64,000 nt of DNA, taken from Polyangia bacterium. Lineage in GTDB: Bacteria; Myxococcota_A; Polyangia; Fen-1088. Shown here one piece after another: positions 12,313 to 57,619 of the stretch. The translations under genes and the position numbers were made by a program. Where the stretch lies: the NCBI GenBank assembly GCA_036267635.1, contig DATAVR010000139.1:211-64210 (forward strand), in the 5' to 3' direction. The notes under the pieces were generated by a model. The model saw only the letters and a list, made by a program, of their open reading frames with translations, searched no databases and was not told where the DNA came from. Position 1 is the first letter of the stretch. The number at the start of each line of letters is the position of its first letter.

Positions 12313-12514
12313 GGCGGATCTCCGAGGCGCTGGGGTTGGCGACCTGGAGTTTGAGACTGGCCCGCCGATCCGCCATTCGAGCGATCGCAAATCAGTCTTC
12401 GCCGCACCTGCCGTGAGCGCGTCGATCTACGCCCCGGCCGCAATTGCCACCCGTCGATCGCTGGCCATGTTGCAGGCCGAGGGCCGCGGCGACGTGGTCA
12501 GGGGAGAGACTTCC

Positions 12515-33184: not shown

Positions 33185-33211
33185 CCGTCTTTCACCGCTC
33201 GAGCTCGACCT

Positions 33212-33256
33212 CTTGCCAATTCGGCCAATCCGGCCAATTCGGCAATTCGGCAATCG
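33212..33256 (-). repeat. Degenerate 9-bp tandem repeat, about 5 units (CCGAATTGG family)
   Basis: Minus strand reads CCGATTG CCGAATTG CCGAATTGG CCGGATTGG CCGAATTGG. It lies 28-72 nt upstream of ATG 33184. In the gene's frame it would read RIGRIGRIGK. Confidence 0.85.
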
Positions 33257-33544
33257 GATCGACGGGCGGCGTCCCATTGTTCGAGACGCCCGACGGCGTC
33301 GCAAGCTCGTCCGCCGCTGTTTCCTCGCCGATCGGACGATCTGGTCGTCGCGATCTACCTCCTCGGCGCGGTCCTCCTCGGCCTCCACTGCGGGGCGCGG
33401 GCGGCGGCCCTGACGGGCGCGGCGATCCACTTCGCGCTCACCCGGCTCACCAACGACCCGCAGGGAACGTTCAAGCTGATCCCCTTCCACACCAACGCCT
33501 TCGTCGAGCTCGGCGAAGGGCTCGGCGTCGCCGCCGCCGCCGGC

Positions 33545-35416: not shown

Positions 35417-38005
35417 TCAGCCCGGAGCGTGCGCCGCTTGCCACGCGTCGATGTCGTGGATCAAGCGGGAGGCTCCCGGCTCTTTGGCGATTCCCTCGCG
35501 GGTGCTTCGAACGAGAGCGGCCGATCGCCGGTGCTCGCGAGGTGAGGCGCTCCACAGGGCGCGCGAAAGAGCAAACCGGGCCTGGGCGGCGATCAGCGGA
35601 TCCTGATCCCCGAGAAGCGCAGCCGACCTTTCGAGTGTGCCGACCGCCGCGCGATCGCGGTGCTCGGCCAGCTCGAGGGTCCCACGATCGAGCAGGGCGT
35701 AGCCGAGGTAGAACGCCGTCGCTCCCTGCCTCCCGAAGGTGGCCAGAGCGTCGTCGAGGGCTCGGTGTGCTTCGGCGAACCGCCCCAAGCCGGTGAGAAT
35801 CTCGGCCTGATTCACCGACGCCACAGCCACCAAGGTGCTGTCTTTTCCTGAAAGCTTCGAGAAGAGATCGACAGCCCGGAGGATGAGCGGCTCGGCGTCT
35901 GCATCGCGATTGAGCGCGTGCAACTTGAGAGCGACGTTCGACGCCGAGACGGCGACGTCGAAATGAGAGGAGCCGAGAACCTTCTCCTTGAGGGCGAGGA
36001 CCTTCTGGGTCTGACGAAGCGCTTCCTCTAGATGCCCTTCGTCGAACGAGACCTGGGCGTCGTCGTCTGCCAGCCACGCTTCCAAGATCGGATGATCTGG
36101 AAACCGCGCCAGGACGGCCTGGCCGTGCCTCAGGGCGTTTCGTGCCATTCGCGTATCGTGAAAGCGGCTCGAATAGAGCGTCCCGAGGTAGAGATTCGCC
36201 TCGATCGAAACCTGGTCGTGCCGTGAGGCGTCGGCGGCAAACACCGCGCTGTCGAGCTCGCTGATCGCCTTCTCGGCATCGATACAGGTCTCGCCCAGCC
36301 GGCCGAGCGTGAGGTGCGCTTCGGCCTCGAGTGGGAGGTAACCGATTGCCTTCGCCGTCGCTACGGCGGCTGCGCCGGCAGCAGCGGCCTGATTGCACTG
36401 TCCGGAGTCTCCCAATGCCTTGACTCGCGCCACCGCCTCGCGGGCGGCGCCGACCTTGGCGCGCACCGCCGGATCGTCGGGCGGCTTGATCACGGCGCGC
36501 AACATCGGGACGTCGGCGCAGCGATCGAGCGCCGGAAGCGCGCTGGCGGCGCCGACGGCGTTGTCGACCACGCCGCGATCGGCGGTCAGGAAGACGTCAC
36601 CGAGGGCGCGCACACCGGAGAGCCGTTCGCCGAGGCATCCCATGCGCAGGTCGAGCACCTCGGCCGACTGCTCGCCGCGGACCTGCGTCGCCTCGCAGCT
36701 GTCGGCGTACATCCCAGTCCAGCGCGCGACGTACTGATCGACGAGCGCCGAGGCGTTGGCGAAAGCGCGTGCCGCGTTGCTGTTGCCGGTCGCCGCGAAC
36801 GCGCGCGCGATCGCCGCCCGCCGGTCGGGGCCCCAGACGCTCGCCGCGCGGCCGGGACCTCCCGCGCACATCGCCCGTTGGCCCGCGGTGAAACGATGCG
36901 CGCCCGCCGCGCCCGCGGCGACGAAGATCGCGGCGGTGGCCGCCGCCAGCCATCGCCGGCGGCGCACCGCCGGGTCGTGGCCGAGCGCGGTCAGGAGCTC
37001 GGTCATCGCCGGAAAGCGATCCTTGGGATCGGTGGCCAGGCCGCGCAGCAAGATCTTCCGGATCCAGGCCGGCACGCGAGCCTCCGACGGCGGATCGGTC
37101 ACCGTGCCGGCGACGACGTTGGCCATGAGCGCGAGGGCGTTCTCCCCCGCGAACGGGCGGCGGCCGTAGACACCTTCGTAGAGCGCCACGCAGAACGAAA
37201 ACTGATCGGAGCGCGCGTCGCCGCCCGTCCCGGCGAACTGCTCGGGCGCCATGTAGGCTGGTGTCCCCAGCATCGCGCCGGTCTGGGTCAGCTTGAGCCG
37301 CAGGTAGCCGCCCGACGCGCTCGGCACCGCTCCGTTCAAAGCGCCGCCACCACCGAGCTTGGCCGTCGCGTCGGGATCGACGCCGTCGCCGAAGGTGTCG
37401 GCCAGCGCGGCGGCCAGCGCGGCGGCGTCCAGCGCCAGCTGCCCCGCCGGCGACGGCGCGTCGGCCGTCATCTGCTCGCGCGCGAGACCGAAGTCCATGA
37501 CCCGGACCTGGCCGGCCTTGGTGATCATCACGTTCTCGGGCTTGAAGTCGCGGTGGACGAGACCGGCGGCGTGAGCCGCCACCAGGCCTCGGCCGGCGGC
37601 GACGTAGACGTCGAGCACCTCGCGCCAGCGATGCGTCGCGGCCTGCAGCCAGTAGCCGAGCGTGTGCCCTTCGACGAACTCCATCGCGATGAACACCGAC
37701 TCGCGGAACGTGCCGACGTCGTAGACGACGACGACGTTGGGGTGCGACAGCCGCGCGATCGCCTGCGCCTCGCGCAAGAGGCGCGTCTTGCCGTCGGCGG
37801 TCGCCTCGCCGCTTCCGCCCCGGGCCCGCAACAGCTTGACGGCGATCTTGCGATCCAGCTCCGGATCGTAGGCGGCGTAGACCTCGCCCATACCGCCGCG
37901 GCCGAGGAGGCCGAGCACCACGTAGCGGCCGATGGTCGCCCCCTTGGCCAAGCCGGTCTCCTCGCCGGCGGCGTTGGGCGGGGGGCGCCTCGGCTCGATG
38001 GACAT
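35417..38005 (-). CDS. Ser/Thr protein kinase with large C-terminal TPR-like region
   Basis: Motifs GRGGMGEVY, VAVK-like AVKLL, HRDFKPENV, DFGLA and APE, followed by about 500 aa of helical repeats. Confidence 0.9.
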   Translation of the reverse strand: MSIEPRRPPPNAAGEETGLAKGATIGRYVVLGLLGRGGMGEVYAAYDPELDRKIAVKLLRARGGSGEATADGKTRLLREAQAIARLSHPNVVVVYDVGTFRESVFIAMEFVEGHTLGYWLQAATHRWREVLDVYVAAGRGLVAAHAAGLVHRDFKPENVMITKAGQVRVMDFGLAREQMTADAPSPAGQLALDAAALAAALADTFGDGVDPDATAKLGGGGALNGAVPSASGGYLRLKLTQTGAMLGTPAYMAPEQFAGTGGDARSDQFSFCVALYEGVYGRRPFAGENALALMANVVAGTVTDPPSEARVPAWIRKILLRGLATDPKDRFPAMTELLTALGHDPAVRRRRWLAAATAAIFVAAGAAGAHRFTAGQRAMCAGGPGRAASVWGPDRRAAIARAFAATGNSNAARAFANASALVDQYVARWTGMYADSCEATQVRGEQSAEVLDLRMGCLGERLSGVRALGDVFLTADRGVVDNAVGAASALPALDRCADVPMLRAVIKPPDDPAVRAKVGAAREAVARVKALGDSGQCNQAAAAGAAAVATAKAIGYLPLEAEAHLTLGRLGETCIDAEKAISELDSAVFAADASRHDQVSIEANLYLGTLYSSRFHDTRMARNALRHGQAVLARFPDHPILEAWLADDDAQVSFDEGHLEEALRQTQKVLALKEKVLGSSHFDVAVSASNVALKLHALNRDADAEPLILRAVDLFSKLSGKDSTLVAVASVNQAEILTGLGRFAEAHRALDDALATFGRQGATAFYLGYALLDRGTLELAEHRDRAAVGTLERSAALLGDQDPLIAAQARFALSRALWSASPREHRRSAALVRSTREGIAKEPGASRLIHDIDAWQAAHAPG

Positions 38006-38071
38006 GCTTCACGGTCCAAATCGGCTGGCGACCGCCGACGATTGAGCGGTGGGGCGGGATATCATGCGCCC

Positions 38072-39643
38072 GTGCGCCGACCGGAGTGGCTGACGCGGGA
38101 CTACCTGACGATCGACTCCCGGAGCCTGGGCGCCGGGAGGATCGGCCTCGGGCTCGTGCTGCTGCTCGATCTGTTGCGGCGGATCTCGGTCCTGCCGCTC
38201 TGGTACTCGAACCTCGGCCTCCTGCCCAACCACACGGTCCTCTGGCGGCCGCCGTTTCCTCGGGCGTTCTCCCTCTTCTTCATGGCGTCACTGCCCTCCG
38301 AGGCGGCGGTCGGCTTCGTCCTCTGCGCGGTCGCCTACCTGATGCTCCTCTTCGGCAACCGGACGCGCGCAGCCCATCTGGCCAGCCTGATCGCGGTCTT
38401 GAGCCTTCACGGGCGCGTCCTCTTCGTTCAAAACGGCGGCGATGTGGTGCTCGTCGAGCTCTGCGTCTGGACGTTGTTCCTGCCGACCGGGCGCCGATTT
38501 TCGCTGGATTCGCTGCGCGCCCGCCGGGCGATCGTCCCGCCCGACGACGGGCCAGTCGTGTCGCTGGCGGCGCTGGCGGTCGTGGTGCAGCTGGCGGTGA
38601 TCTACTTTTTCAACGCGCTCCAGAAGAGCGGCCCCACCTGGCGCGGCGGCGGCGCCGTCCACTACACGCTCTACGCCGAAGGGGTGGTGACCAAGCTGGG
38701 CGTCTGGGTCCGGGGCTGGCTGACCCTGGGCCAATCGCGCCTCCTCACCTGGTCGACGCTGACGATCGAATCGATCCTGCCGCTGCTCATCCTGACGCCG
38801 GTGGGGCGGCGGCCGGCGCGGCGGCTGGCGATCGCGCTCATGGTCGGCCTGCACCTCGGCTTCGCGTCGTTCCTCAACCTGGGAATTTTCGTCCCGGCGA
38901 TGCTCGCCTTCACACCGTTCCTGGTGCCGGCCGCCGATTGGGACGCGCTCGAGCGCTGGTGGCGGCGGCGCCAAACGAAGGAAGGCGATGCCGCGCGCGG
39001 TGACGGCATCCGGCTCCGGGCTCTCCAGGCGCTCGCCTTTCTCGAACGGCGCGGTTTCCTGCGCCTCGACCCCCGGCCCCCCAAGCCGGCGCAGTGGCGC
39101 GAGTGGCTGCGCACCTGGAGCGGACCGCTGCGCGAGTGGACGGTGGCGCTGCTCATCGTTTGCGCGACCGCCCGCCTGCTGGTCGACAACCCCGCCGTCA
39201 CGCGGGTCAACGCCCGGCGCCAACCGCGCATCGTCGCCGCGACCACCAGCTACCTTCAGATGCTGCAGGCCTGGCTGCTCTTCGCTCCGGATGCGCCGCT
39301 CACCGACGCCGCCGTGGCAGTCGACGCCGTCACCACCGACGGGCGCCACGTCGATCCGCTCAACGAGGCCCTCTCGCCCGAGCAGCCCTGGCTCGGCACG
39401 GTCATTCCGGCGCGCCTCGGCCAGAACGCCTTCGCCGCCGCCTACATGTTGCGGATCCCGTTCCACCCGGAGTACTTCGGCGCGCTCACCGAGTGGATCC
39501 TCGGCTACCCCGATCGCACGGAGCGCCCGGCGGATCGCATCGTCTCCTTCGAGGTCACCGCCCTCGAGCGCGACAACCCACCACCCGACCAGCACGAACC
39601 CGGCGAAACGCGGGCGCGGCTCCTCTACAAATACCCGCAGTGA
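38072..39643 (+). CDS. HTTM-domain (vitamin K-dependent gamma-carboxylase-like) integral membrane protein
   Basis: GTG 38072. N-terminal pattern SLGAGRIGLGLVLLLDLLRR...LWYSNLGLLPN and a multi-TM core match the HTTM domain as I recall it. The C-terminal about 220 aa are soluble. Confidence 0.75.
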   Translation: MRRPEWLTRDYLTIDSRSLGAGRIGLGLVLLLDLLRRISVLPLWYSNLGLLPNHTVLWRPPFPRAFSLFFMASLPSEAAVGFVLCAVAYLMLLFGNRTRAAHLASLIAVLSLHGRVLFVQNGGDVVLVELCVWTLFLPTGRRFSLDSLRARRAIVPPDDGPVVSLAALAVVVQLAVIYFFNALQKSGPTWRGGGAVHYTLYAEGVVTKLGVWVRGWLTLGQSRLLTWSTLTIESILPLLILTPVGRRPARRLAIALMVGLHLGFASFLNLGIFVPAMLAFTPFLVPAADWDALERWWRRRQTKEGDAARGDGIRLRALQALAFLERRGFLRLDPRPPKPAQWREWLRTWSGPLREWTVALLIVCATARLLVDNPAVTRVNARRQPRIVAATTSYLQMLQAWLLFAPDAPLTDAAVAVDAVTTDGRHVDPLNEALSPEQPWLGTVIPARLGQNAFAAAYMLRIPFHPEYFGALTEWILGYPDRTERPADRIVSFEVTALERDNPPPDQHEPGETRARLLYKYPQ

Positions 39644-48049: not shown

Positions 48050-48247
48050 TCGGGCGCGATAAGACTCGCGCTCACCGAAATCCGGAACGCGACTGTTCGA
48101 TCTTCGGAGACCGCGATCTCGTTCGTGCGTGGCCTCACTGGACGCGGATCGTGAGATCACGCTGGTTTCCCACGCGCGCCCACCTGTCGGTGCGCTGGCG
48201 CGATGTTTGAATAGGTGCTGCGCGGTTCCACTACCTCGGAGGGCACC

Positions 48248-50473
48248 GTGTTTCGAACAATCCGTAGAGCAACGATTTTGACGATCCTTTCTTCCACCGC
48301 ATTCATCGTCGGCAGCTGCGGCGGCGAGCGCTCGACCTCAACCACCAACAACGCGGGGCTCGGCTCCGTCGACATCGCGCTGGTTCAAGGCGGCGTGACG
48401 CTCACGAGCGTGGGCTACGCGATCAGCGGCCCCAACGGCTTTTCGAAGTCGGGGACGATCAACGTCGCTTCCAGCACCACCGTCTCGGCGGTCATCGGCG
48501 GCCTTCCCGCCGGCAACGGCTTCACCATCACGCTCACCGCGACCGGCACCGATGGGACGACGAGCTGCGGCGGCAACGCGATGTTCAACGTGACCGCGGG
48601 GACCGTCACCAAGGTCAACGTCACGCTCGACTGCCACCAGCCGGCCAAGACCGGCAGCGTCGCGGTCAACGGCACGATCAACGTCTGCCCGAACCTCGAC
48701 GCGCTCTCGGCCAGCCCCGCCGAGGTGGCCGTCGGAGGGAGCCTGTCGCTGTCGGCCGTGGCGGACGATCCCGACAACGGCCCGTCGCCGCTCAGCTACA
48801 GCTGGACGACCAGCAGCGGCACGCTCGCCGGCGCCAACACCGCCAGCCCGAGCCTCGAATGCACCGGCACCGGCACGGCGACCGTGTCAGTGACGGTCTC
48901 CGACGGCGACGCGCAGGCCAGCTGCGCGGCGCATGGCTCGGTACAGGTGACCTGCAGCGGCCACAACGACGCGGCCCTGCTCGTTCCCACCGCCACGCCG
49001 ATCAAGCACGTGGTGGTGGTGTTCGGCGAGAACATCTCGTTCGACCATTACTTCGGCACCTACCCCGGCAGCAACAACCTGCTCACACCGCTCGACACCA
49101 CCAACGGCTTCGCGCCGCTGGCGGGGGTCGACCTCCTCAACCACAACCCGGTCGCGGCCAACGCGGCCAACGGCACGGGGGCGGTCAACCCGTTCCTGCT
49201 CACCGGGCCGGCGCAGGCCTTCACCAACGACATGGGTCACAACTACAAGCCCGAGCAGCAGGCCTCGGACAACGGCGCGATGGACCTCTTCCCGGAGTTC
49301 ACGGGCACCGCGGGACCACCGCCGGGCTCGCCGGCCGCCGCGCTGACCAAGGGGCTGGTGATGGCGTACTACGACAGCGGCACCGTCGGCGAATACTGGA
49401 GCATCGCGCAGCAGTTCGCGCTCAACGACAACTCCTGGACCACGATGTTCGGCCCCTCCACGCCGGGCGCCATCAACCTCATCTCCGGCCAGACGAACGG
49501 CTTCGGCGCCACCAACAAGGACCCGGCGACGTTCTCCACCAGCCACGTCTCGCCCGACGGCAATGGCGGCTGGACGATGATCGGCGACACCGACCCGCTG
49601 CACGACGTCTGCTCCACCTCCACGGAGCAGAATCTCTTCGTCGGGCAGAACATCGGTGATCTGCTCAACGCCAAGAGCCTCACCTGGGGCTGGTTCGAGG
49701 GCGGCTTCGACCTGACGGCCACCAACGCCAACGGGACGACCGGCTGCCAGCGCGAGACGGATCCGACGGTGCCGTTCCCGGCCGGCGAGGTCTCGGCGGA
49801 TTACATCCCGCACCACGCGCCCTTCCAATACTACGCGTCGACCGCCAACCCGACCCACGCGCGTCCTGGTTCGATCGCCGCGATCGGCTCGACCGACGCG
49901 GCCAACCACAACTACGACTCCACGGACTTCTTCGCCGCGCTGGCGGCGGGGAACCTGCCGTCGGTCGTCTACCTGAAGGCGCCGGCGTTCCAGGACGGCC
50001 ACGCCGGCTACTCCGACCCGGTCGACGAAATGAACTTCGTCACCAAGGTGATGACGGCCCTCCAGGGCAGTCAGGAGTGGGCATCCACGGCGGTCATCTT
50101 CGACTACGACGACTCGGACGGCTGGTATGACCACCAGGCGCCCCCGGTCGTGAACCCGTCGACCGCCGCGATCGACGCCCTCAACGGCCCCGGTGTCTGC
50201 ACGCATGGGGCGCAGCAGACCGGTCCCGCTCCGGCGACGCCGCTCCTCGGCGCCGACGGCAAGCCGGCCATGGGCCGCTGCGGCTACGGGACGCGCGTCC
50301 CGATGCTGGTCGCGTCGCCGTTCGCCAAGAAGGGCTTCGTCGACCACACGCTGACCGACCAGACCTCGGTCCTCAAGTTCGTCGAGGACAACTGGCTCGC
50401 CGGGCAGCGCATCCAGGCCGGTGGGTCGTTCGACACCGTCGCCGGCTCGATTCAGAACATGTTCAGCTTCTGA
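48248..50473 (+). CDS. Phosphoesterase family (phospholipase C / AcpA type) lipoprotein with N-terminal Ig-like domains
   Basis: GTG 48248 after GGAGGG gives MFRTIRRATILTILSSTAFIVGSC. About 230 aa of beta-rich Ig-like repeats. Then VVVVFGENISFDHYFG, MGHNYKPEQ and YDDSDGWYDH. Confidence 0.85.
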   Translation: MFRTIRRATILTILSSTAFIVGSCGGERSTSTTNNAGLGSVDIALVQGGVTLTSVGYAISGPNGFSKSGTINVASSTTVSAVIGGLPAGNGFTITLTATGTDGTTSCGGNAMFNVTAGTVTKVNVTLDCHQPAKTGSVAVNGTINVCPNLDALSASPAEVAVGGSLSLSAVADDPDNGPSPLSYSWTTSSGTLAGANTASPSLECTGTGTATVSVTVSDGDAQASCAAHGSVQVTCSGHNDAALLVPTATPIKHVVVVFGENISFDHYFGTYPGSNNLLTPLDTTNGFAPLAGVDLLNHNPVAANAANGTGAVNPFLLTGPAQAFTNDMGHNYKPEQQASDNGAMDLFPEFTGTAGPPPGSPAAALTKGLVMAYYDSGTVGEYWSIAQQFALNDNSWTTMFGPSTPGAINLISGQTNGFGATNKDPATFSTSHVSPDGNGGWTMIGDTDPLHDVCSTSTEQNLFVGQNIGDLLNAKSLTWGWFEGGFDLTATNANGTTGCQRETDPTVPFPAGEVSADYIPHHAPFQYYASTANPTHARPGSIAAIGSTDAANHNYDSTDFFAALAAGNLPSVVYLKAPAFQDGHAGYSDPVDEMNFVTKVMTALQGSQEWASTAVIFDYDDSDGWYDHQAPPVVNPSTAAIDALNGPGVCTHGAQQTGPAPATPLLGADGKPAMGRCGYGTRVPMLVASPFAKKGFVDHTLTDQTSVLKFVEDNWLAGQRIQAGGSFDTVAGSIQNMFSF

Positions 50474-50535: not shown

Positions 50536-52227
50536 GTGATTCATTCGTCACTATCGACACCTGCCGTTCGGAAATATGTTGGGCGCTTGATTCGCCGCCG
50601 GAAATTCCTGGCTCTCGCTGCGGCCTCGGTCCCGGCCTGGGCTTGCCGCCGGAGCGTGCTCGCCCCGGCGCCGCCCACCGAACGGCCGCCGGCGGCTCCG
50701 CCCGCCGGGACCGGCGAGGGCCCGCCGCTCCACCCCGACGCGCTCGCGCGCTTCGTCGACCCGCTGCCGATCCCCCGCACGCTGGCGCCGCAAGGAACCC
50801 GCCCCGACCCGCGCGATCCGACCAAGCAGGTCGCCTTTTACAAAGTCGCCATGGCCGAGGTGCTCGCCAAGATCCACCGCGACGTCCCCGCCACCCGCTT
50901 CTGGGGTTATGCCGGCAGCTTCCCCGGCCCGACCATCGAAGCCCGCGGCAGCCAGGGCGTCCTCATCGAGTGGGTGAACCAGCTGCCCACCCGTCACTTC
51001 CTTCCCATCGACCACACCCTCTGCGGCGCCGGCAAGGATCGCCCGGACGTCCGCGCCGTCACCCACGTGCACGGCGCGAAGGCGCCTCCGGAGAGCGACG
51101 GCTATCCCGAAAACTGGACGACGCCCGGACAGTCCTCGCTGTTTCACTACCCGAACCAGCAGGAGGCGGCGACGCTCTGGTACCACGACCACGCGATGGG
51201 AATCGAGCGCCTCAATCAGTACGCCGGCCTCCTCGGCGTCTACCTGATCCGCGACGCGGCAGAAGAGACGCTCGACCTGCCGCGCGCCCCTTACGAGCTG
51301 CCGCTGGTGCTCTGCGACCGGCTGTTCGGGCAGGACGGCCAGCTTCGATACTCGACCTCCGGCGCACCTGACGCCCCCTGGATCCCCGAGATCTACTGCG
51401 ACGCCCACCTGGTGAACGGGAAGTTGTTCCCGTACCTGGACGTCGAGCCGCGCCGCTACCGATTTCGCGTGGTCAACGCCTCGAACTCGCGGTTTTACGA
51501 CCTGTCGTTTTCGAACGGCGGCGCTTTCCATCAGATCGGAACCGACCAGGGCCTCCTGCCGGCGCCCGTTCCGCTCACCGCGCTGACGTTGGCGCCGGCC
51601 GAGCGCGCCGACCTGCTGGTCGATTTCAGCGCCGGCGCCGGTCAAAAGATCCTGCTCGAGAGCCAGGCGTTCGAGCTCATGCAGTTCCGCGTCGCCGCCG
51701 GCCCCCGGGCACGACCGACGCCGCTGCCGCGGAAGTTGCGCCCGGTCCGGAAGATCGCCGAGTCGGCGGCGGTTGTCACCCGAACCCTGAAGCTGAATGA
51801 GTACCACGACCCTCAGGCCCACCGGATGCTCATGCTCCTCGACGGCAAGCACTGGCACGACCCCGTGAGCGAGAAGCCCGAGCTCGACAGCGTCGAGATC
51901 TGGCAGCTCATGAACCTGACCGAGGACAGCCACCCCATCCATCTGCACCTGGTGCGCTTCCAGATCCTCAACCGCCAGCTGTTCGACGCCGACGAGTACC
52001 GGACTTCCGGAAAGCTGGAGCTGGTGCGCGCGCCGATGCCGCCGGCGCTCAATGAGGCGGGGTGGAAGGACACCGTCCGCGTCGATCCCGGAACGATTAC
52101 CCGAATCATCGTGAAGTTCGAGGGTTACACCGGCCGCTACGTCTGGCACTGCCACCTGCTGGAGCACGCCGCCAACGAGATGATGCGCCCCTTCGAGGTG
52201 GTCGCCCGGCCGACCTCAGCGGGATGA
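50536..52227 (+). CDS. Multicopper oxidase (CotA / bilirubin-oxidase-like), Tat signal
   Basis: RRRKFLALAAA twin-arginine region. Copper motifs HVHG, WYHDH, HPIHLHL and HCHLLEHAANEMM. Start uncertain (GTG 50536 or TTG 50587). Confidence 0.9.
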   Translation: MIHSSLSTPAVRKYVGRLIRRRKFLALAAASVPAWACRRSVLAPAPPTERPPAAPPAGTGEGPPLHPDALARFVDPLPIPRTLAPQGTRPDPRDPTKQVAFYKVAMAEVLAKIHRDVPATRFWGYAGSFPGPTIEARGSQGVLIEWVNQLPTRHFLPIDHTLCGAGKDRPDVRAVTHVHGAKAPPESDGYPENWTTPGQSSLFHYPNQQEAATLWYHDHAMGIERLNQYAGLLGVYLIRDAAEETLDLPRAPYELPLVLCDRLFGQDGQLRYSTSGAPDAPWIPEIYCDAHLVNGKLFPYLDVEPRRYRFRVVNASNSRFYDLSFSNGGAFHQIGTDQGLLPAPVPLTALTLAPAERADLLVDFSAGAGQKILLESQAFELMQFRVAAGPRARPTPLPRKLRPVRKIAESAAVVTRTLKLNEYHDPQAHRMLMLLDGKHWHDPVSEKPELDSVEIWQLMNLTEDSHPIHLHLVRFQILNRQLFDADEYRTSGKLELVRAPMPPALNEAGWKDTVRVDPGTITRIIVKFEGYTGRYVWHCHLLEHAANEMMRPFEVVARPTSAG

Positions 52228-52322: not shown

Positions 52323-52868
52323 GTGTTTGGACTCGTCCTCACCCTCGCCGTATCCGTGGTGCCGGCCATGCCGTCGGCCGTGGCGGGCATGCCTTCGGCG
52401 AGCGTGACCTGTCCCGGATGGCCGGCCAGCTGCGACGGCGCCTGGGGGGCCATGCCGGCGAATGCGCCGGCCGACGCGGCGACGGACGACGGTCCGCACG
52501 ACTACGCCACGCCCGCCGAGATCGACTGCCCGACGCCACCCGAGCCGGCCCCGGTGCTGCCGGTCGCCACCGGCGAGTGCAGCGAGCCGCCGCTCAACCT
52601 CTGGTACCGCGTTTCGCGGTTCCCCGAGAGCGAAGCGCCCACGGGCTCCCTCGCGCCGGCGCCGCGCCGCACCCGCGCGGGCAAGGGCGTCTCTGCCGGG
52701 GGCGCGCAGGACGTCGGCGGCCATCTGTCGGCGCCCGACCTTCAGCCGCTGGCGCTGTTCGCGCTGCCCGGCCTCGTCCCGACCAGCGGGCGCGATCTCT
52801 CGGACGTTTCGACGCGGGTCATTCCAGCCCGTGCGCTCGCGCCGCCCGATCGGCCGCCTCGCGCCTGA
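52323..52868 (+). CDS. Pro-rich secreted hypothetical protein
   Basis: High GC3 in this frame and a hydrophobic N-terminus. Competing ORFs exist on both strands, so this call is weak. Confidence 0.4.
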   Translation: MFGLVLTLAVSVVPAMPSAVAGMPSASVTCPGWPASCDGAWGAMPANAPADAATDDGPHDYATPAEIDCPTPPEPAPVLPVATGECSEPPLNLWYRVSRFPESEAPTGSLAPAPRRTRAGKGVSAGGAQDVGGHLSAPDLQPLALFALPGLVPTSGRDLSDVSTRVIPARALAPPDRPPRA

Positions 52869-52975
52869 CCGCGGTTCGAGGTCCTTCGATTTGACGCGCG
52901 TGTGGGGCGTGCCGCGCCCCCGCAAGCGCCAGGTTTTCGTCGCGCGGCGTTTTCGATTGGGAAATGGAGCTGATC

Positions 52976-55582
52976 ATGAGCAAAGGAACAGTATTGGTAC
53001 TGCTGGTGGTGGTGCTGGGAGGCGGATATGGCCTCGGGCGCCTGGCGACGCGTGACAAAGACGGTTCGTCCTCGGCGGCCGTCGCGATGCCGACCACGCA
53101 AGGTCCGAGCGACGGCGTCGACCGTCTCCGAGTGCCGCTCGAGGGCCCGTCCAGGGGTCCGGCCGACGCCAAGGTCACGATCGTCGAGTTCTCCGACTTT
53201 CAGTGCCCGTTCTGCAGCCGCGTCGTCCCCACGGTCGACAAGATCATGAAGGACTACAACGGCAAGGTGCGGCTCTACTTCCGCCACAACCCGCTGCCGT
53301 TCCACCAGAACGCGCCGCTGGCCGCCGAGGCCGCGGTGGCCGCCGAGGCGCAGGGGAAGTTCTGGGAGATGCACGACAAGATGTTCGCCAATCAGGGGGC
53401 GCTCGACCGGGCGGGCCTCGAGAAGGACGCGCAGGAGATCGGTCTCGACATGAACAAGTTCAAGACCGCGCTCGACACGCACGCGGGCAAGACGCGCGTC
53501 GACGCCGACCTGGCGGCCGGCAAGCAGATCGGCGTGCAAGGGACGCCGAACTTCTACATCGACGGGCGCAACGTTCAGGGAGCGCAGCCGTACGAAGAGT
53601 TCAAGAAGGTCATCGACGACGAGATCTCGCGCGCGGACAAGCTGATCGCCAAGGGAACGCCGACGAACATGCTCTACGCGACGTTCATGAAGGGGGCCAA
53701 GGCCTCCCCGGGCGCGGCCGCCGGGGCCGGCAAGGGCCCGGGCGCCGGGACCGAGGTCTACAAGATCGCCGTCGGTGATGCGCCGACCCGGGGCAGCAAT
53801 CAGCCGAAGGTCACGGTCATCGAGTTCTCCGACTTCCAGTGCCCCTACTGCGGCCGCGCCGCCGGAACCGTCGACACGCTGCTCAAGAGCTACAGCAACG
53901 ACGTCGAGGTCGCCTACAAGCACAACCCGCTGCCGTTCCACCCCAACGCCATGCCGGCCGCCCTGGCCTCCGAGGCGGCGCGCGCGCAGGGGAAGTTCTG
54001 GGAGATGCACGACAAGCTGTTCGCCGGGCAGGCGAACCTCGATCGCCCCACGCTCGACAAGTTCGCCCAGGAGATCGGGCTCAACATGGCGAAGTACAAG
54101 GAGTCGATGGACAAGGAGCAGGGGAAGGATCGCATCAAGCGCGACATGGCCGACGCCGAGAAGTTCGGCGCCCGGGGCACCCCCAACTTCTTCATCAACG
54201 GGCGCAACCTCCGCGGCGCGCAGCCGATCGAGGCGTTCAAGGGCGTCATCGACGAGGAGATCAAGAAGGCCGACGCCAAGATCGCCGCCGGCACGCCGCG
54301 CGGGATGGTCTACGCCGCGCTCACCCAGAACGGTCTCGACAAGGCGGCCGCTCCGCCGCCGGCGCCCGCGCGCGGCGGCGAGGCCGACCCCAACACGCGT
54401 TACCGCGCCGAGATCAAGGGCGCCCCGATGAAGGGGGCCAAGGACGCGCCGGTCACGATCGTGCAGTGGTCGGACTTCCAGTGCCCGTTCTGCAGCAAGG
54501 TCGAGCCGACCGTCTCCAAGGTGATGGAGGACTACAAGGGGAAGGTGCGCGTCGTTTGGCATGACCTGCCGCTGCCGTTCCACCCCAACGCCCTGCCCTC
54601 CGCCATCGCGGCCCGCGCCGCCGGCGAGCAGGGGAAGTTCTGGGAGATGCACGACAAGCTGTTCGCCGATCAGGCGCACGAGGATCGCGCGACCTTCGAG
54701 AAGTACGCGCAGGAGCTGGGCCTCAACATGGGCAAGTTCAAGGCGGCGCTCGACGCGCAAAAGGGCAAAGAGGCGATCGAGGCCGACTCGGCCGCGGGCG
54801 GCAAGATCGGCGCCCACGGCACGCCGGCCTTCTTCGTCAACGGCAAGTTCCTCTCGGGCGCGCAGCCCTACGAGGTCTTCAAGGGGAAGATCGACGAGGA
54901 GCTGAAGATCGCCGACTCGATGATCGCCAAGGGGACGCCCAAGTCGAAGATCTACGACGCGCTCATGAAGGACGCGAAGACCGAGGTGCCGGCCGCGGCG
55001 GCCGCCCCCGCGCAGGCGCAGGGTGCGGAGAAGACCCCCGATCAGGACACCACCGTCTACAAGGTGTCGGCGGCGGGCGGCCCGGCCAAGGGGTCGAAGA
55101 ACGCGCCGTTGCAGGTGGTGATCTTCTCGGACTTCCAGTGCCCGTTCTGCAAGCGGGTCGAACCGCAGCTCTCGCAGCTGGAGAAGGAGTACGGCAGCAA
55201 GATGCACATGGTCTGGAAGAACTACCCGCTGCCGTTCCACCCCTTCGCCGAGCCGGCGGCCGAGGCGGCCATGGCGGCCAACGCGCAGGGGAAGTTCTGG
55301 CAGATGCACGACAAGCTGTTCGAGAACAACACTGCGCTCGATCGCCCGAACCTGGAGAAGTACGCGCAGGAGCTGGGGCTCGACATGGCCAGGTTCAAGG
55401 CCGACCTCGACGCCCAGAAGTACAAGGACGCGATCCAGTCCGACACCAAGGAAGGCCAGGGGGTGGGCGTGAACGGGACGCCGGCGGTGTTCATCAACGG
55501 GCGCAAGATCAACGGCGCCTACCCGTGGGAGACGTTCAAGAAGATCGCCGACGACGAGCTGGCCAAGAAGAAGAAGGGATAG
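52976..55582 (+). CDS. Membrane-anchored protein with four tandem DsbA-like thioredoxin domains
   Basis: GGAG 6 nt before ATG 52976, and an N-terminal TM segment (VLVLLVVVLGGGYGL). The module FSDFQCP(F/Y)C...NPLPFH...QGKFWEMHDKLF...GTPxFFINGR occurs four times. Confidence 0.9.
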   Translation: MSKGTVLVLLVVVLGGGYGLGRLATRDKDGSSSAAVAMPTTQGPSDGVDRLRVPLEGPSRGPADAKVTIVEFSDFQCPFCSRVVPTVDKIMKDYNGKVRLYFRHNPLPFHQNAPLAAEAAVAAEAQGKFWEMHDKMFANQGALDRAGLEKDAQEIGLDMNKFKTALDTHAGKTRVDADLAAGKQIGVQGTPNFYIDGRNVQGAQPYEEFKKVIDDEISRADKLIAKGTPTNMLYATFMKGAKASPGAAAGAGKGPGAGTEVYKIAVGDAPTRGSNQPKVTVIEFSDFQCPYCGRAAGTVDTLLKSYSNDVEVAYKHNPLPFHPNAMPAALASEAARAQGKFWEMHDKLFAGQANLDRPTLDKFAQEIGLNMAKYKESMDKEQGKDRIKRDMADAEKFGARGTPNFFINGRNLRGAQPIEAFKGVIDEEIKKADAKIAAGTPRGMVYAALTQNGLDKAAAPPPAPARGGEADPNTRYRAEIKGAPMKGAKDAPVTIVQWSDFQCPFCSKVEPTVSKVMEDYKGKVRVVWHDLPLPFHPNALPSAIAARAAGEQGKFWEMHDKLFADQAHEDRATFEKYAQELGLNMGKFKAALDAQKGKEAIEADSAAGGKIGAHGTPAFFVNGKFLSGAQPYEVFKGKIDEELKIADSMIAKGTPKSKIYDALMKDAKTEVPAAAAAPAQAQGAEKTPDQDTTVYKVSAAGGPAKGSKNAPLQVVIFSDFQCPFCKRVEPQLSQLEKEYGSKMHMVWKNYPLPFHPFAEPAAEAAMAANAQGKFWQMHDKLFENNTALDRPNLEKYAQELGLDMARFKADLDAQKYKDAIQSDTKEGQGVGVNGTPAVFINGRKINGAYPWETFKKIADDELAKKKKG
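53090..55582 (+). repeat. Four intragenic tandem repeats of about 640 bp (DsbA-domain units)
   Basis: First Cys codon of each CPxC site lies at 53204, 53840, 54482 and 55139 (spacings 636, 642 and 657 nt). The repeats are diverged, not identical. Confidence 0.85.
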
Positions 55583-55591
55583 CGCTCGCTG

Positions 55592-55654
55592 CGTGGGAGG
55601 GGTTCCCCCTCCCACGGGCCCGTCGACAGAACAGGAACCCTCAAAGGGTTCCTG
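55592..55654 (+). terminator. Two strong GC-rich stem-loops downstream of the tetra-DsbA gene
   Basis: CGTGGGAGGGG-ttc-CCCCTCCCACG (55592..55616) and CAGGAACCCT-caa-AGGGTTCCTG (55632..55654). No U-tract. Confidence 0.45.
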
Positions 55655-55769: not shown

Positions 55770-56378
55770 GTGAAGGCTCGAGCCACCGCACCTGAGGCCG
55801 CAGAGGGCGGGTCGCGGTGGCGCCGTTTGTGGCCGTCGGCGCTCACGGCGCTGGCGATCGCCTTCGTGGCGGTGCGGTTCCTGGGCGCGACGCATGACAC
55901 CTTGGCCCGCACCCGCGGGGGAGCTTGCAAGGCGTTGCAGCCGGATCCACTGCCTGGCTTCTTGCAGAGCGGGCCGACGCCCGACTTTCAGCTTCCGGAT
56001 GCCGGCGGCCGCACGGTGTCGCTGAGCGCGCAGAAGGGGCACCCGGTGCTGCTGAACTTCTGGGCCACCTGGTGCCCGCCCTGCGTCGACGAGGTCCCTT
56101 CGCTGGAGGATCTCGCCCGCAAGCTCGACGGCACCGACCTGCGGATGCTGGCGGTGAGCGTCGACGACGACTGGGGCGCCATCCGGCGGTTCTTCCCGAA
56201 AGGGAGCAGCATCGGCGTCCTGCTCGACACCTCGCACGACATCCCCAAGAAGTTCGGGACCGAGAAGTTCCCGGAGAGCTTCCTCATCGACGCCGCCGGT
56301 CGCGTCCGCTACTACTTCATCAACAAGCGCGACTGGTCGCGCCCCGAAGCCGTCGCCTGTCTGGAAAGCTTGCGATGA
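55770..56378 (+). CDS. TlpA/ResA-family thiol:disulfide oxidoreductase (membrane-anchored)
   Basis: GTG 55770, an N-terminal TM segment, and the NFWATWCPPC motif. Confidence 0.85.
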   Translation: MKARATAPEAAEGGSRWRRLWPSALTALAIAFVAVRFLGATHDTLARTRGGACKALQPDPLPGFLQSGPTPDFQLPDAGGRTVSLSAQKGHPVLLNFWATWCPPCVDEVPSLEDLARKLDGTDLRMLAVSVDDDWGAIRRFFPKGSSIGVLLDTSHDIPKKFGTEKFPESFLIDAAGRVRYYFINKRDWSRPEAVACLESLR

Positions 56379-57619
56379 GCTCCGCGCCGTTCCTCGCGCC
56401 GGCGCCCCAAGCCACGCCGGGCGCTCGACGGCGCGGGATCCCGCCGCTGCCGCTGCTGACGCTGATCAACTTTTTCAACTACGTCGACCGTCAGGTCGTC
56501 TATGGGATGACGCCGCACATCGGCGAGGCGTTCCACCTCTCCAACTCCAAGCTCGGGCTCCTCGCCTGGGCGAATCTGTTCGTGTTCGCCGTCGCCTCGT
56601 TGATCTCCGGGCCGATCGCCGACCGCATCGGCCCGCGCAAGGTGATCTTCACCGGCATCCTCGTGTGGTCGATCGCCACCATCGGCTCGGCGCTGTCGAC
56701 CTCGTTCCCGATGCTGCTGTTCTTCCGCGCGCTGGTCGGCGTGGGCGAAGGGGCCTACGGGCCGTCGGCCAACACGCTCCTCTGCGCCGACGCTCCGCCC
56801 GAAAAGCGCGGCCGGGCGCTCGGCATCTACAACGTCGGCATGGCGCTCGGCGGGACGAGCGGCCTCGTGCTGGGGGCGATGCTGGCGCCCGTCCTCGGCT
56901 GGCGCGGCGTGTTCTGGATCGCCGGCGGTCCCTCGATCCTGCTGGCGCTCTCCTCGGCGTTTCTCTCCGCCCCCGATCACCTGGAGCGGCCCAAGGCGGA
57001 GCGCGCCCGCTCCTACCTGCTGTCGCCGACCTATCTGCTGGCGCTGGCCGGAGGGATCCTGGCCACCTTCGGCGCCAGCTCGCTCATCTTCTGGATTCGG
57101 ACGCTGGTGATCGAGGAGCGCCACTTCAGTGTCAGTGCGGGGAGCGGTTTCATGGCCGTGGTGGGTCTCGTCGCCGGGGTGGGGGGCGTCATCGTCGGAG
57201 GCTACGCGGGCGACGCGTTCAACCGGCGCAGGAACGGCGGCCACGCGCTCACCATCGGCCTGTCGATGCTGATCGGCGCGCCGGTGGGCGCCGTGGCGCT
57301 GATGGTCTCCGGCCAGGCGTTCTTCATGGTGATGACCTTCAGCGCCGCTTTTCTCTTCTCCGTCTACAACGGCCCCTCGGCCGCCGTGGTCGACGAGCTC
57401 GGGCCGCCGCAGTATGGCGCCACGCTGCAAGCGGTCTTCATGTTCGGTCTCCACGTCCTCGGCAATGCGCCCGCCCCCTCGGCGGTCGGCGCGATCTCCG
57501 ATCACTTCCACACCTCGATCGCGACGTCGCTTCAAGCGGCCAACATCGCCTTCGCGCTCTCCGGCGTTCTTTTTCTGGTGGTCGCCAGCCGCCAACGCAA
57601 GGCCCCCGCCTTTCACTGA
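56375..57619 (+). CDS. MFS transporter (Spinster-like)
   Basis: ATG 56375 overlaps the TlpA stop (ATGA). Contains NFFNYVDRQV, GPIADRIGPRK and FRALVGVGEG MFS motifs. Confidence 0.85.
   Translation: MSSAPFLAPAPQATPGARRRGIPPLPLLTLINFFNYVDRQVVYGMTPHIGEAFHLSNSKLGLLAWANLFVFAVASLISGPIADRIGPRKVIFTGILVWSIATIGSALSTSFPMLLFFRALVGVGEGAYGPSANTLLCADAPPEKRGRALGIYNVGMALGGTSGLVLGAMLAPVLGWRGVFWIAGGPSILLALSSAFLSAPDHLERPKAERARSYLLSPTYLLALAGGILATFGASSLIFWIRTLVIEERHFSVSAGSGFMAVVGLVAGVGGVIVGGYAGDAFNRRRNGGHALTIGLSMLIGAPVGAVALMVSGQAFFMVMTFSAAFLFSVYNGPSAAVVDELGPPQYGATLQAVFMFGLHVLGNAPAPSAVGAISDHFHTSIATSLQAANIAFALSGVLFLVVASRQRKAPAFH

Follow-up and report, generated by a model that had tools for sequence, protein, structure and literature searches.

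A myxobacterial protein with four tandem DsbA-like domains and its conserved TlpA-like gene neighbour

Bacterial disulfide-bond formation has so far been studied mainly in DsbA oxidases that act as monomers and in oligomeric isomerases of the DsbC/ScsC type. In eukaryotes, PDI-type chains both form and reshuffle disulfides, and members of the PDI family (a-b-b'-a'; ERp72 and ERdj5, with 3-4 active domains) combine many CxxC thioredoxin-fold domains in one chain. In ScsC (Proteus, Caulobacter), BcfH (Salmonella) and alpha-DsbA2 (Wolbachia), several DsbA-like domains are flexibly joined by non-covalent association through an N-terminal helical trimerisation domain, and these proteins are reduced by ScsB/DsbD. 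It has been reported that multivalency gives isomerase activity to PmScsC, CcScsC, StBcfH and WpDsbA2 (PMC8900818; PMC5524982). A 2009 survey listed PDI-type enzymes carrying between two and four thioredoxin domains and mentioned in passing DsbA-like proteins with "up to three" domains (PMC2757866). Our literature search found no functional study of multi-domain DsbA-like proteins.

Here we describe a gene for a four-domain DsbA-like protein in what we call the window, the whole 64-kb stretch of DNA that was analysed. The gene and its parts are as follows.

52976..55582, + strand: four-domain DsbA-like gene, 868 aa from ATG 52976
52988..53038, + strand: N-terminal hydrophobic segment TVLVLLVVVLGGGYGLG, the sole hydrophobic 19-mer in the protein
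53123..53695, + strand: DsbA-like domain 1 (D1), CPFC at 53204-53215, Gly-Thr-Pro loop (cis-Pro position) at 53540-53548, AF2 pLDDT ~90
53696..53746, + strand: linker 1, AKASPGAAAGAGKGPGA, Ala/Gly/Pro-rich and predicted disordered, pLDDT <50 at residues 244-255
53747..54331, + strand: DsbA-like domain 2 (D2), from Pfam and AF2, CPYC at 53840-53851, Gly-Thr-Pro loop at 54176-54184
54332..54397, + strand: linker 2, GLDKAAAPPPAPARGGEADPNT, pLDDT <50 at residues 460-467
54398..54973, + strand: DsbA-like domain 3 (D3), better conserved than D1, D2 and D4, CPFC at 54482-54493, Gly-Thr-Pro loop at 54818-54826
54974..55075, + strand: linker 3, beginning AKTEVPAAAAAPAQAQGAEKTPDQD, pLDDT <50 at residues 674-685
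55076..55579, + strand: DsbA-like domain 4 (D4), CPFC at 55139-55150, Gly-Thr-Pro loop at 55475-55483, C-terminal end KKKKG

The ORF call for this gene is 52964..55582 (+, 872 aa), with an in-frame ATG at 52964 that adds MELI to the protein. ATG 52976 is the likelier start because GGAG lies 6 nt upstream of it and homologue N-termini read MNKGT or MSKGT, in agreement with the start given in the original prediction. That prediction of a single membrane-anchored polypeptide with four DsbA-like domains also matches the one hydrophobic segment and the four Pfam stretches found here. The segment spans residues 6-24 from the 52976 start and has a mean Kyte-Doolittle value of 1.99, compared to a maximum of 0.75 elsewhere in the protein. 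TVLVLLVVVLGGGYGLG is a signal-anchor or uncleaved signal peptide, from which we infer an inner-membrane tether with the protein on the periplasmic face. The cytoplasmic tail comprises 4-5 residues, and the protein has no signalling domain. Distant four-domain homologues carry a similar anchor, or a lipobox in its place (LTAC, VSAC).

Pfam detected Thioredoxin_4 (PF13462) in four stretches (E 4.9e-118, 391.6 bits, cut-off 23.2) and DSBA (PF01323; E 1.3e-96, 322.4 bits, cut-off 25.6). The protein contains eight Cys in total, which make up CPFC, CPYC, CPFC and CPFC at residues 81, 293, 507 and 726, and the corresponding starts (nt 53204, 53840, 54482 and 55139) coincide exactly with those at which four intact CPxC sites had been predicted. 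No site is degenerate: the four CP[FY]C motifs and the four Gly-Thr-Pro loops are all intact and conserved. These loops align with the Thr-Pro of Corynebacterium diphtheriae TsdA, whose cis-Pro loop is T248/P249 (PMC9974433), and they presumably adopt the cis conformation. In the AF2 model the four domains have a pLDDT of ~90, the three linkers and the N-terminus fall below 50, and the pTM is 0.37. Each module is modelled as beta-alpha-beta, 4-5 helices and beta-beta-alpha, a thioredoxin fold with an alpha-helical insert, in which CP[F/Y]C directly precedes a predicted helix. The linkers are flexible Ala/Pro/Gly stretches of ~17-34 residues, and between anchor and D1 lie ~25 residues of low complexity, for which pLDDT is <50 and no helix is predicted. 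As modelled, the domains are independent beads on flexible linkers with no predicted inter-domain packing, and AF2 gave no evidence of domain cooperation.

A Foldseek search returned DsbA-class structures with TM scores of up to 0.84 (target-normalised). The best PDB matches were TsdA/'DsbA' 4pwo/7unn (34-37% identity over 171 columns), 3gyk and BdbD, with CcScsC, StScsC, PmScsC and Wolbachia DsbA2 also among them; by sequence, the nearest solved relatives were TsdA (E 5e-33), BdbD (E 1.9e-23) and ScsC (E ~3e-20). The modules are DsbA-class thiol-disulfide oxidoreductase domains of the BdbD/TsdA/ScsC type, and scores above the curated Pfam cut-offs, a helix-interrupted fold and a CxxC with a cis-Pro loop place them in the DsbA-like/Thioredoxin_4 superfamily. 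C. diphtheriae TsdA (PDB 7UNN, the 'DsbA' of 4PWO) is the best match by both sequence and structure. TsdA and the actinobacterial MdbA-type enzymes share with the window protein a DsbA fold with a helical insertion, CPFC, a Thr-cisPro loop and an N-terminal tether (PMC9974433). However, TsdA, from a Gram-positive envelope, has just one domain and no TlpA-like partner described, whereas the window protein has four domains in one chain in a diderm; an identity of about one third thus denotes resemblance within a family rather than orthology. Bacillus subtilis BdbD (PDB 3EU3; TM 0.83, target-normalised) is a membrane-associated Thioredoxin_4-type domain, single and with a CPSC site. Its gene is paired with that for the DsbB-like BdbC, whereas no DsbB-like gene was found in the window.

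Several named families do not accommodate the protein. In contrast to the trimeric ScsC, BcfH and alpha-DsbA2, its valency is covalent, and membership of ScsC is further ruled out by the absence of a predicted trimerisation helix between anchor and D1 (AF2), by the lack of scsB in the window and by a copper link that is not conserved. Scores for the DsbC/DsbG isomerases were low (NCBIfam DsbG 46.9 bits, cut-off 124; DsbC 38, cut-off 215), with short matches around CxxC or in the C-terminal part alone. The Rcas_1661 thioredoxin-like (seleno)lipoprotein family (NF041057, a 247-position model) was also rejected: each domain scores ~105 bits against a 190-bit threshold, and the total of 422.6 bits exceeds it only because four stretches add up. 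Moreover, with all eight Cys placed in CxxC sites, the window protein has none left for a lipobox, which some of its homologues do carry. Eukaryotic PDIs are built of plain thioredoxin folds that lack the helical insertion of DsbA, and include non-catalytic b domains for substrate binding, whereas the window protein has DsbA-type domains with the insert, CP[F/Y]C instead of CGHC and no b-type domains; with an independent origin, PDI is an analogy and not a family to which the protein belongs. UGGT (PDB 5N2J) carries four tandem DsbA-like domains, TRXL1-4, in one chain and was matched by Foldseek over ~850 columns, but a TM of 0.14-0.25 and an rmsd of ~25 A confine the resemblance to the repeat units. 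In UGGT the TRXL domains, which have no CxxC, serve to sense misfolding.

The modules show 46-56% protein identity to one another, with 56 invariant columns that include SDFQCPxC, PLPFH, QGKFWxMHDK and GTP. In DNA, the four copies are spaced at 636, 642 and 657 nt and are 69-75% identical over 300 nt; no long exact DNA repeats were found within the gene, and Tandem Repeats Finder detected no array in it. These values put numbers to the earlier description of the repeats as related yet diverged. An assembly artefact or a decaying repeat expansion is almost certainly not the explanation, because the DNA copies have diverged so far, because an identical 872-aa protein is present on contigs of three separate JGI samples (three independent metagenome assemblies), and because four domains are the rule in close homologue clusters (119 of 120) and dN/dS is <0.6 for each domain. 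The independent assemblies and the diverged copies exclude an artefact as far as sequence data allow.

It had been implied that proteins with three or more DsbA domains are rare. This proved wrong: 147 of the best 150 50%-identity representatives carry 3-6. One homologue has seven, and related proteins are known with 2, 3, 5, 6 or 7 domains. Proteins with at least three DsbA domains are a large family in Myxococcota and relatives, and the four-domain layout is common and old in myxobacteria. Within the four-domain orthologue clusters, all four CPxC sites are kept in 118 of 119 and all four GTP loops in 115 of 119. Per-domain dN/dS values of 0.2-0.58 indicate purifying selection on each domain, with the lowest in domain 3 (0.215-0.284). 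D1-D4 are positionally orthologous with distant loci, both in comparisons with L016, L018 or L025 on one side and among L009, L017, L019 and L022 themselves; the four-domain order is ancient. Nine long three-domain representatives were tested: seven join a Ser/Thr kinase to three DsbA domains (Ser/Thr-kinase-(TM)-3xDsbA), and one has Sigma70_r2. A Ser/Thr kinase gene lies <=6 kb away in 9 of 44 loci. Hundreds of database entries that now bear only the label 'thioredoxin domain-containing protein' could be divided among three or more classes: four-domain proteins with a TlpA-like partner, three-domain proteins that are free, and three-domain proteins fused to a kinase.

The surroundings of the gene in the window are as follows.

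52323..52868 (JGI: 52452-52868), + strand: small conserved ORF directly upstream of the four-domain gene, from an alignment of the window, L004, L005 and L006
55593..55652, + strand: two perfect hairpins between genes, read from the sequence
55827..56378, + strand: TlpA/ResA-like membrane-anchored thioredoxin gene, WCPPC at 56073, alternative GTG start at 55770
56375..57619, + strand: MFS transporter gene (Pfam MFS_1, 8.8e-51), ATGA overlap with the TlpA-like gene

The multicopper oxidase (MCO) and TlpA-type genes given as flanks in the original prediction were found at 50536-52227 (CueO/PhsA-like, upstream) and 55827-56378. The product of the latter has an N-terminal hydrophobic segment and matches Pfam Redoxin (1.8e-23) and AhpC-TSA, and its NCBIfam scores are all under the cut-offs (ResA 76 bits, cut-off 170; TlpA 61, cut-off 230; DsbE 60, cut-off 123); it is TlpA-like and not a named orthologue. 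A TlpA-like gene on the same strand comes directly after the four-domain gene in 12 of 15 loci (Bradymonadia included), that is, in 7 of 10 independent lineages, the exceptions being L022, L025 and L054. It also follows all four Nannocystis-type 2+3+2 gene clusters, but none of 16 evaluable lone three-domain genes and none of 31 single-domain loci (Fisher p ~2e-4 on lineages). By this linkage the TlpA-like gene is a conserved partner specific to the four-domain form. In the window the two genes are separated by a 245-nt gap containing two hairpins, GTGGGAGGGG-TTC-CCCCTCCCAC at 55593-55615 and GGAACCCT-CAA-AGGGTTCC at 55634-55652, so their co-transcription is not assured. The hairpins have no T-run and were therefore not called by a consensus terminator scan; they may be a terminator, an attenuator or an mRNA-stabilising element. 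The conserved pairing of the TlpA-like gene with the four-domain form had gone unnoticed in the original prediction. As predicted, there is no DsbB or VKOR nearby: the DsbB, VKOR and DsbD/CcdA/ScsB families had no match in any scanned ORF of the 64-kb window, and DsbB/VKOR Pfam families had none in the ten neighbouring ORFs scanned at seven distant loci.

We give an even chance to the reading that the four-domain protein is a multivalent envelope disulfide oxidoreductase, probably isomerase-capable, that works with the TlpA-like partner. Its substrates would be exported Cys-containing proteins, which it would meet on the outer side of the inner membrane. Four DsbA-like sites on a flexible chain would be the covalent equivalent of DsbC dimers and of ScsC/BcfH/alpha-DsbA2 trimers, and a multi-cysteine substrate within reach of several sites could have its disulfides formed and reshuffled in a PDI-like manner. 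The TlpA/ResA-like CPPC protein may feed reducing equivalents into some or all of the four sites, or carry out corrective reduction. TlpA-like proteins are not always reductases: M. tuberculosis DsbE and DsbF have TlpA-like folds, yet show oxidase behaviour in vitro. Nor did the ORFs scanned in the 64 kb include a DsbD/CcdA/ScsB from which the TlpA-like protein might draw electrons. Sequence cannot tell an oxidase from an isomerase, as CPxC with Thr-cisPro is found both in oxidases (BdbD, SaDsbA, overexpressed TsdA) and in isomerases (ScsC); the authors of the TsdA study regard CPFC, a motif without His, as 'not primarily an oxidizer' (PMC9974433).

A real, if somewhat unlikely, alternative is a plain oxidase, in which the modules would be redundant DsbA/MdbA/TsdA-like donors re-oxidised by an unlinked DsbB/VKOR, the tandem copies would raise local concentration, and the TlpA-like neighbour would rescue apocytochrome c or Cu-centre proteins, like ResA versus BdbD in Bacillus. 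Partner genes of the dsbB type are often unlinked to dsbA, AF2 predicts no cooperative packing, and three-domain paralogues occur without a TlpA-like neighbour. The nearest solved relatives by sequence, TsdA and BdbD, are moreover tethered and support oxidative folding, but the His to which DsbA owes its strong oxidising power is missing from CPFC (PMC9974433). A plain oxidase also leaves unexplained why four separately conserved, positionally orthologous domains are kept up and why it is the four-domain form in particular that the TlpA-like gene accompanies, and the scanned ORFs of the 64 kb yielded no DsbB/VKOR. An intramolecular electron relay from domain to domain, as in DsbD alpha-beta-gamma, is very improbable. 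What speaks for it is confined to four co-linear redox sites and a thioredoxin-like neighbour possibly at one end, whereas the near-identity of the sites (CP[F/Y]C, Gly-Thr-Pro) means that no graded chemistry is apparent, the low pTM and disordered linkers offer no inter-domain interface, and relatives with other domain numbers fit interchangeable modules better. The original suggestion of a multivalent or relay protein thus holds in its first half, a multivalent tethered oxidoreductase being reasonable because sites and loops are conserved, each domain is under purifying selection and the domains are independent beads; its second half finds no such support.

We consider it improbable that the array is a sensor, holdase or scaffold that binds unfolded Cys proteins or reports the periplasmic redox state. 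Models for this would be the presumed sensor role of the kinase-fused three-domain arrays and the catalytically dead TRXL domains of UGGT. The kinase and Sigma70_r2 fusions, the kinase genes within 6 kb at nine loci and the Foldseek match to UGGT are consistent with it. It has been previously reported that an M. tuberculosis receptor kinase carries a 'redox-sensitive DsbG homolog' as its sensor domain (PMC1847690). Among such kinases with Dsb-like sensors (M. tuberculosis PknE, the myxobacterial kinase-3xDsbA proteins), the myxobacterial fusions use the same tandem modules, with CPFC intact, as their periplasmic part, but beyond its short tail the window protein carries neither a kinase nor any other cytoplasmic domain, all four catalytic sites are strictly conserved, and the conserved partner is a thioredoxin-fold protein and not a kinase. 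Slightly less probable still is a ScsC-like copper-stress system that, together with the MCO, repairs copper-induced mis-oxidised disulfides or binds Cu(I). ScsC proteins are among the closer relatives by sequence and structure, CcScsC is an isomerase that binds Cu(I) (PMC8900818), and the window has the MCO upstream and a ScsD-like TlpA-type gene downstream. However, the MCO and a phosphoesterase are missing at the orthologous loci L004 and L005 (81% and 73% identity) and so resemble a lineage-specific insertion; the MCO recurs in just 4 of 44 loci, a number that the window plus its near-identical copies could account for. A functional role for it is thus not supported, and neither ScsB/DsbD (in the window) nor a ScsC-type trimerisation helix was found.

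Returning to the multivalent oxidoreductase, we tentatively extend it, as a rather unlikely proposal, to a self-contained bacterial counterpart of PDI, in which the chain and its TlpA-like partner would merge the DsbA and DsbC pathways in one tethered polypeptide that introduces and proof-reads disulfides; more broadly, the tandem-DsbA array would be a periplasmic module of Myxococcota for 'cysteine-client binding'. Different domains of the chain might be held in different redox states, and the array may have been put to use repeatedly, both in free enzymes of 3-7 domains and in Ser/Thr kinases and sigma-factor regulators, where it would be the sensor. If the protein is PDI-like, bacteria too evolved multi-active-site foldases, which myxobacteria may need for very large Cys-containing secretomes. 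A natural four-site single chain would allow valency to be dissected cleanly without disturbing an oligomerisation domain, and could help the production of disulfide-rich proteins; the conserved TlpA-like partner provides a concrete, testable electron-flow hypothesis.

Two further neighbours are conserved among close relatives. The MFS transporter is, judging from the ATGA overlap, translationally coupled to the TlpA-like gene; it is present in L001, L002, L004 and L005 (a contig end cuts L003), and it was not found adjoining distant four-domain genes, so that its conservation is limited to the close (Polyangia) orthologues. The small upstream ORF matches no Pfam family and is called as a gene in L001, L003, L004 and L005. 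Its product has an N-terminus resembling a signal peptide, four conserved Cys and a C-terminus, PARALAPPDRPPRA, that is likewise conserved, and it might be a substrate or an accessory protein.

The four-domain gene occupies an open reading frame at 52964..55582 on the forward strand (872 aa). Of the two ATG codons at its 5' end, that at 52976 appears to be a better start than that at 52964, since a GGAG lies six bases upstream and close homologues begin with MNKGT or MSKGT; the original prediction had used the same start. Pfam recognized four Thioredoxin_4 stretches (E 4.9e-118) and DSBA (E 1.3e-96) in the product, and we found a single strongly hydrophobic segment, at residues 6-24 counted from the 52976 start, with none elsewhere in the protein, which bears out the predicted arrangement of four tandem DsbA-like modules behind a transmembrane anchor. 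More distant four-domain homologues carry a similar signal-anchor or a lipobox (LTAC, VSAC), and membrane tethering is therefore a family trait. The protein contains exactly eight cysteines, all of them within four CPxC sites spaced by 212, 214 and 219 residues; these sites are intact, and all four positions match those predicted:

53204, forward strand, CPFC of the first domain (D1)
53840, forward strand, CPYC of the second domain (D2)
54482, forward strand, CPFC of the third domain (D3)
55139, forward strand, CPFC of the fourth domain (D4)

By score, fold, CxxC motif and cis-Pro loop, the protein is a member of the DsbA-like/Thioredoxin_4 superfamily. It does not belong to DsbC/DsbG, as its equivalog scores are far below cut-off and the dimerization domain is missing, nor to ScsC in the strict sense, as it lacks the trimerization helix and a conserved copper link and the window shows no scsB; it is like PDI in principle only. 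The NF041057 threshold was passed only through the summing of four sub-threshold stretches.

The repeats had been judged by eye to be clearly related but diverged, and computed pairwise identities agree: D1-D4 are 46-56% identical in protein and have 56 invariant positions in common, including SDFQCPxC, PLPFH, QGKFWxMHDK and GTP. Over 300 nt the corresponding DNA copies reach no more than 69-75% identity, and the gene showed no tandem array at the DNA level. Furthermore, contigs of three separate JGI samples carry a gene for exactly this 872-aa protein. The divergence of the DNA copies, the three independent assemblies and the conserved architecture together reduce the probability of an assembly artefact to practically nil, and this explanation was discarded.

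An AlphaFold2 model built with 69 orthologues (mean pLDDT 85.4, pTM 0.37) reached about 90 pLDDT in each of the four domains, each of which was modelled as beta-alpha-beta, a helical insert and beta-beta-alpha. Values fell below 50 in the first 44 residues and in linkers at 244-255, 460-467 and 674-685; the linkers comprise 17-34 residues and are rich in Ala, Pro and Gly. In this model the protein is a beads-on-a-string chain with no predicted inter-domain packing. Profile searches of PDB sequences, and Foldseek, placed C. diphtheriae TsdA/'DsbA' (7unn/4pwo; E 5e-33, 34-37% identity) at the top, with 3gyk, BdbD, the ScsC proteins of Caulobacter, Salmonella and Proteus, and Wolbachia DsbA2 among the further best relatives; E. 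coli DsbA is distant (E about 5e-4). It has been reported that TsdA is a membrane-tethered oxidoreductase with a Thr-cisPro loop and a CPFC motif, the latter shared with the window protein, and that overexpressed TsdA can replace MdbA; its authors suspected that it is 'not primarily an oxidizer', since it lacks the His of CPHC (PMC9974433). Foldseek also returned fungal UGGT (PDB 5n2j, 6trt, 5mzo) over ~850 aligned columns, because the N-terminal half of UGGT likewise consists of four tandem DsbA-like domains; the TM scores were very low, and the resemblance is therefore at the level of the repeat only.

At a cut-off of E <= 1e-10, a word-indexed search with the four-domain protein yielded 6119 proteins. 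Their best 120 clusters, named 'thioredoxin domain-containing protein [Polyangia bacterium]' or 'protein-disulfide isomerase' in the database, are 68-100% identical and 851-910 aa long, save for a 769-aa fragment and a seven-domain protein. Our own domain HMM found four domains in 119 of the 120, with all four CPxC sites kept in 118 and all four GTP motifs in 115 of these 119; in the remaining cluster (P0047), one chain of 1506 aa contains seven domains, each with CPFC. The original prediction had implied that such architectures are rare, and this did not hold. When the four modules were searched as a profile against 1.84 billion 50%-identity representatives, the best 150 of the 66,910 matches were all multi-domain, with at least 118 having three domains, at least 26 four, at least two five, at least one six and at least three two. 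The survey of domain number and neighbors covered 85 loci and these 150 representatives, against roughly 12,000 strong matches in all. Among one-genome-per-species contigs, genes with three or four domains occur in Polyangia, Myxococcaceae, Vitiosangium, Anaeromyxobacteraceae, Sandaracinaceae and Bradymonadia, and almost every match in Acidobacteriota and other phyla outside the myxobacteria has a single domain. MAGs with the window's gene include the ENA assembly ERZ25039594 (2.24-Mb contig_1268) and the NCBI Polyangia MAG DASZVW01. In Nannocystis-type genomes a TlpA-like gene comes after a run of three neighboring genes that encode 2+3+2 DsbA domains, and some Polyangiaceae have two adjacent three-domain genes. 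Adjacent multi-DsbA genes were found at loci L040, L047 (Nannocystis radixulma), L051 and L073, and also at L014 (three genes, 3+3+2 domains), L034, L050 and L074.

Each of D1-D4 gave a dN/dS of 0.2-0.58, ratios in which high GC3 codon bias probably lowers dS and inflates omega; D3 is the most constrained. These values come from comparisons with orthologues at 73-89% identity, because the repeats themselves are ~50% identical in protein and their synonymous sites are saturated. Compared domain by domain, the family of the window protein and L016 match best in order, D1-D1 to D4-D4, as L018 and L025 do in part, and a second clade (L009 from Bradymonadia, L017, L019, L022) displays the same positional orthology among its own members. 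The four-domain order is thus older than these lineages and did not arise by recent expansion. This orthology is limited to the four-domain family; the correspondence dissolves for distant three-domain proteins, and mapping of D1-D4 onto all multi-domain representatives with position-specific HMMs gave small margins and inconsistent orders in distant proteins. The four-domain architecture is real, ancient and well conserved and belongs to a known enzyme class; we found no paper characterizing a multi-DsbA-domain protein in open-access papers and bioRxiv.

The TlpA-like gene is a newly recognized conserved partner of the four-domain gene. It lies immediately downstream on the same strand at 12 of 15 four-domain loci, including the distant L009, L011 and L016-L019, and follows all four Nannocystis-type 2+3+2 clusters. 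None was found after single-domain genes or after lone three-domain genes, where one doubtful opposite-strand match was seen (L048). With near-identical loci collapsed, the gene is present in 7/10 four-domain lineages versus 0/16 evaluable three-domain loci (Fisher p about 2e-4). When all neighbors at the 44 loci carrying a gene of three or more domains were clustered all-against-all, two families alone recurred, the TlpA-like protein at 13 loci and Ser/Thr kinases at 9; the downstream placement came from a more sensitive search. In the window, 245 nt separate the two genes, which abut or overlap in L009 and L016. This interval contains two perfect GC-rich hairpins, which the terminator scan did not call because they have no T-run:

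55593-55615, hairpin with a 10-bp stem
55634-55652, hairpin with an 8-bp stem

Close orthologues also keep a small upstream ORF, an MFS transporter and two methyltransferases. The positions of the small ORF, the transporter and two phosphoesterase genes in the window are as follows:

48215-50473, forward strand, PF04185 phosphoesterase (phospholipase C/acid phosphatase-type)
31733-33544, reverse strand, PF04185 phosphoesterase of the same type
52323-52868, forward strand, small ORF directly upstream, conserved in L001 and L003-L006
56375-57619, forward strand, MFS transporter (L004 13235-14470; L005 9926-11158)

The original prediction had placed the gene between a multicopper oxidase and a TlpA-type reductase. 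The oxidase is absent from the orthologous loci L004 (81% identity) and L005 (73% identity), as is the phosphoesterase at 48215-50473 (with weaker K319L-like_PKD, E 6.7e-5, and PKD, E 5.8e-4, both below Pfam's cut-off), and the two therefore look like an insertion beside the DsbA gene. Their adjacency is incidental, and a copper link through the multicopper oxidase was rejected as a conserved feature. The small ORF, for which no Pfam family was found, starts like a signal peptide; four of its cysteines are conserved, as is its C-terminus (PARALAPPDRPPRA), and its product is a candidate substrate or accessory protein. In close orthologues only, the MFS transporter is translationally coupled to the TlpA-like gene (ATGA overlap); no confident subfamily was assigned to it, and export of a small-molecule reductant would be one speculative link. 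At distant four-domain loci we saw no other conserved partner, the neighbors being unrelated (TrkA-type channel, MscS, GreA, UbiA, several without family). DsbB, VKOR and DsbD/CcdA were missing from the ten neighboring ORFs scanned at distant loci and from ~45 ORFs compared with Pfam over 64 kb, a scan that short or mis-framed genes may escape; the predicted lack of a nearby DsbB or VKOR was thus upheld.

These results demonstrate four intact, individually conserved DsbA-class active sites on a flexible, membrane-tethered chain with a conserved TlpA-like partner gene, and the multivalent oxidoreductase first proposed is the best available account of them. The protein would face the periplasm and act on exported proteins. 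A TlpA/ResA-like thioredoxin fold usually works on the envelope's reducing side, and the specific linkage to one suggests that some of the chain, at the least, stays reduced; the enzyme would then be isomerase- or PDI-like and not purely an oxidase. Its closest working analogues would be the oligomeric DsbA-like isomerases PmScsC, CcScsC, BcfH and alpha-DsbA2, whose isomerase activity arises from the flexible grouping of three DsbA-like domains (PMC8900818; PMC5524982); here gene fusion may have hard-wired that valency. Confidence in this reading is moderate. The main rival, possible and clearly the less probable of the two, is a plain multi-headed oxidase re-oxidized by an unlinked DsbB or VKOR. 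ResA protects particular substrates against BdbD, and the TlpA-like protein would do likewise in such a system. A relay of electrons along the four domains, also raised originally, is very improbable.

Besides the multivalent isomerase- or PDI-like enzyme, a sensor or holdase was considered, for tandem arrays do occur in signaling proteins. Long three-domain representatives are fusions, and 7 of the 9 tested have an N-terminal Ser/Thr protein kinase domain (P0158, P0177, P0183, P0212, P0224, P0235, P0268); another (P0227) is fused to Sigma70_r2 (sigma-70 region 2). The kinase fusions have kept each of their three CP[F/Y]C sites, and in several the kinase domain is without canonical HRDLK/DFG motifs. 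In addition, at 9/44 loci an independent gene for a Ser/Thr kinase sits no more than 6 kb from the multi-DsbA gene (related loci L007, L014, L037, L041, L047, L048, L051, L063, L074). These bacteria thus put tandem DsbA arrays to use as periplasmic sensor modules as well, echoing an M. tuberculosis receptor kinase with a 'redox-sensitive DsbG homolog' sensor domain (PMC1847690), and the basic property of such an array may be to bind or react with cysteine-containing clients. However, the window protein has no kinase or Sigma70_r2 domain, so that this role is unlikely for it. A copper-related, ScsC-like role is about as unlikely, if not slightly more so, given that the multicopper oxidase link is not conserved, that the trimerization helix is lacking and that no scsB was found in the window.

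Elsewhere in the window, CydB (cytochrome bd oxidase subunit II) appears to be fused in frame to a type-II NADH dehydrogenase (Pyr_redox_2 + NDH2_C), with the junction reading ...LFVLDQRSKLQHGSVVAGEHPESRHRVVVVGGGFGG..., and an HTTM domain, a vitamin-K-dependent carboxylase-like transmembrane domain, was detected (E 1.2e-7):

12269-13942, CydA, just upstream of the CydB fusion
~13939-16251, forward strand, CydB-NADH dehydrogenase fusion, within the stop-to-stop ORF 13255-16251
36227-39643, forward strand, HTTM-domain ORF, domain at about nt 38110-38940

The 5' part of the HTTM ORF overlaps, in antisense, a Ser/Thr kinase-TPR gene (35417-38008, reverse strand), and its true start is therefore probably near 38000.
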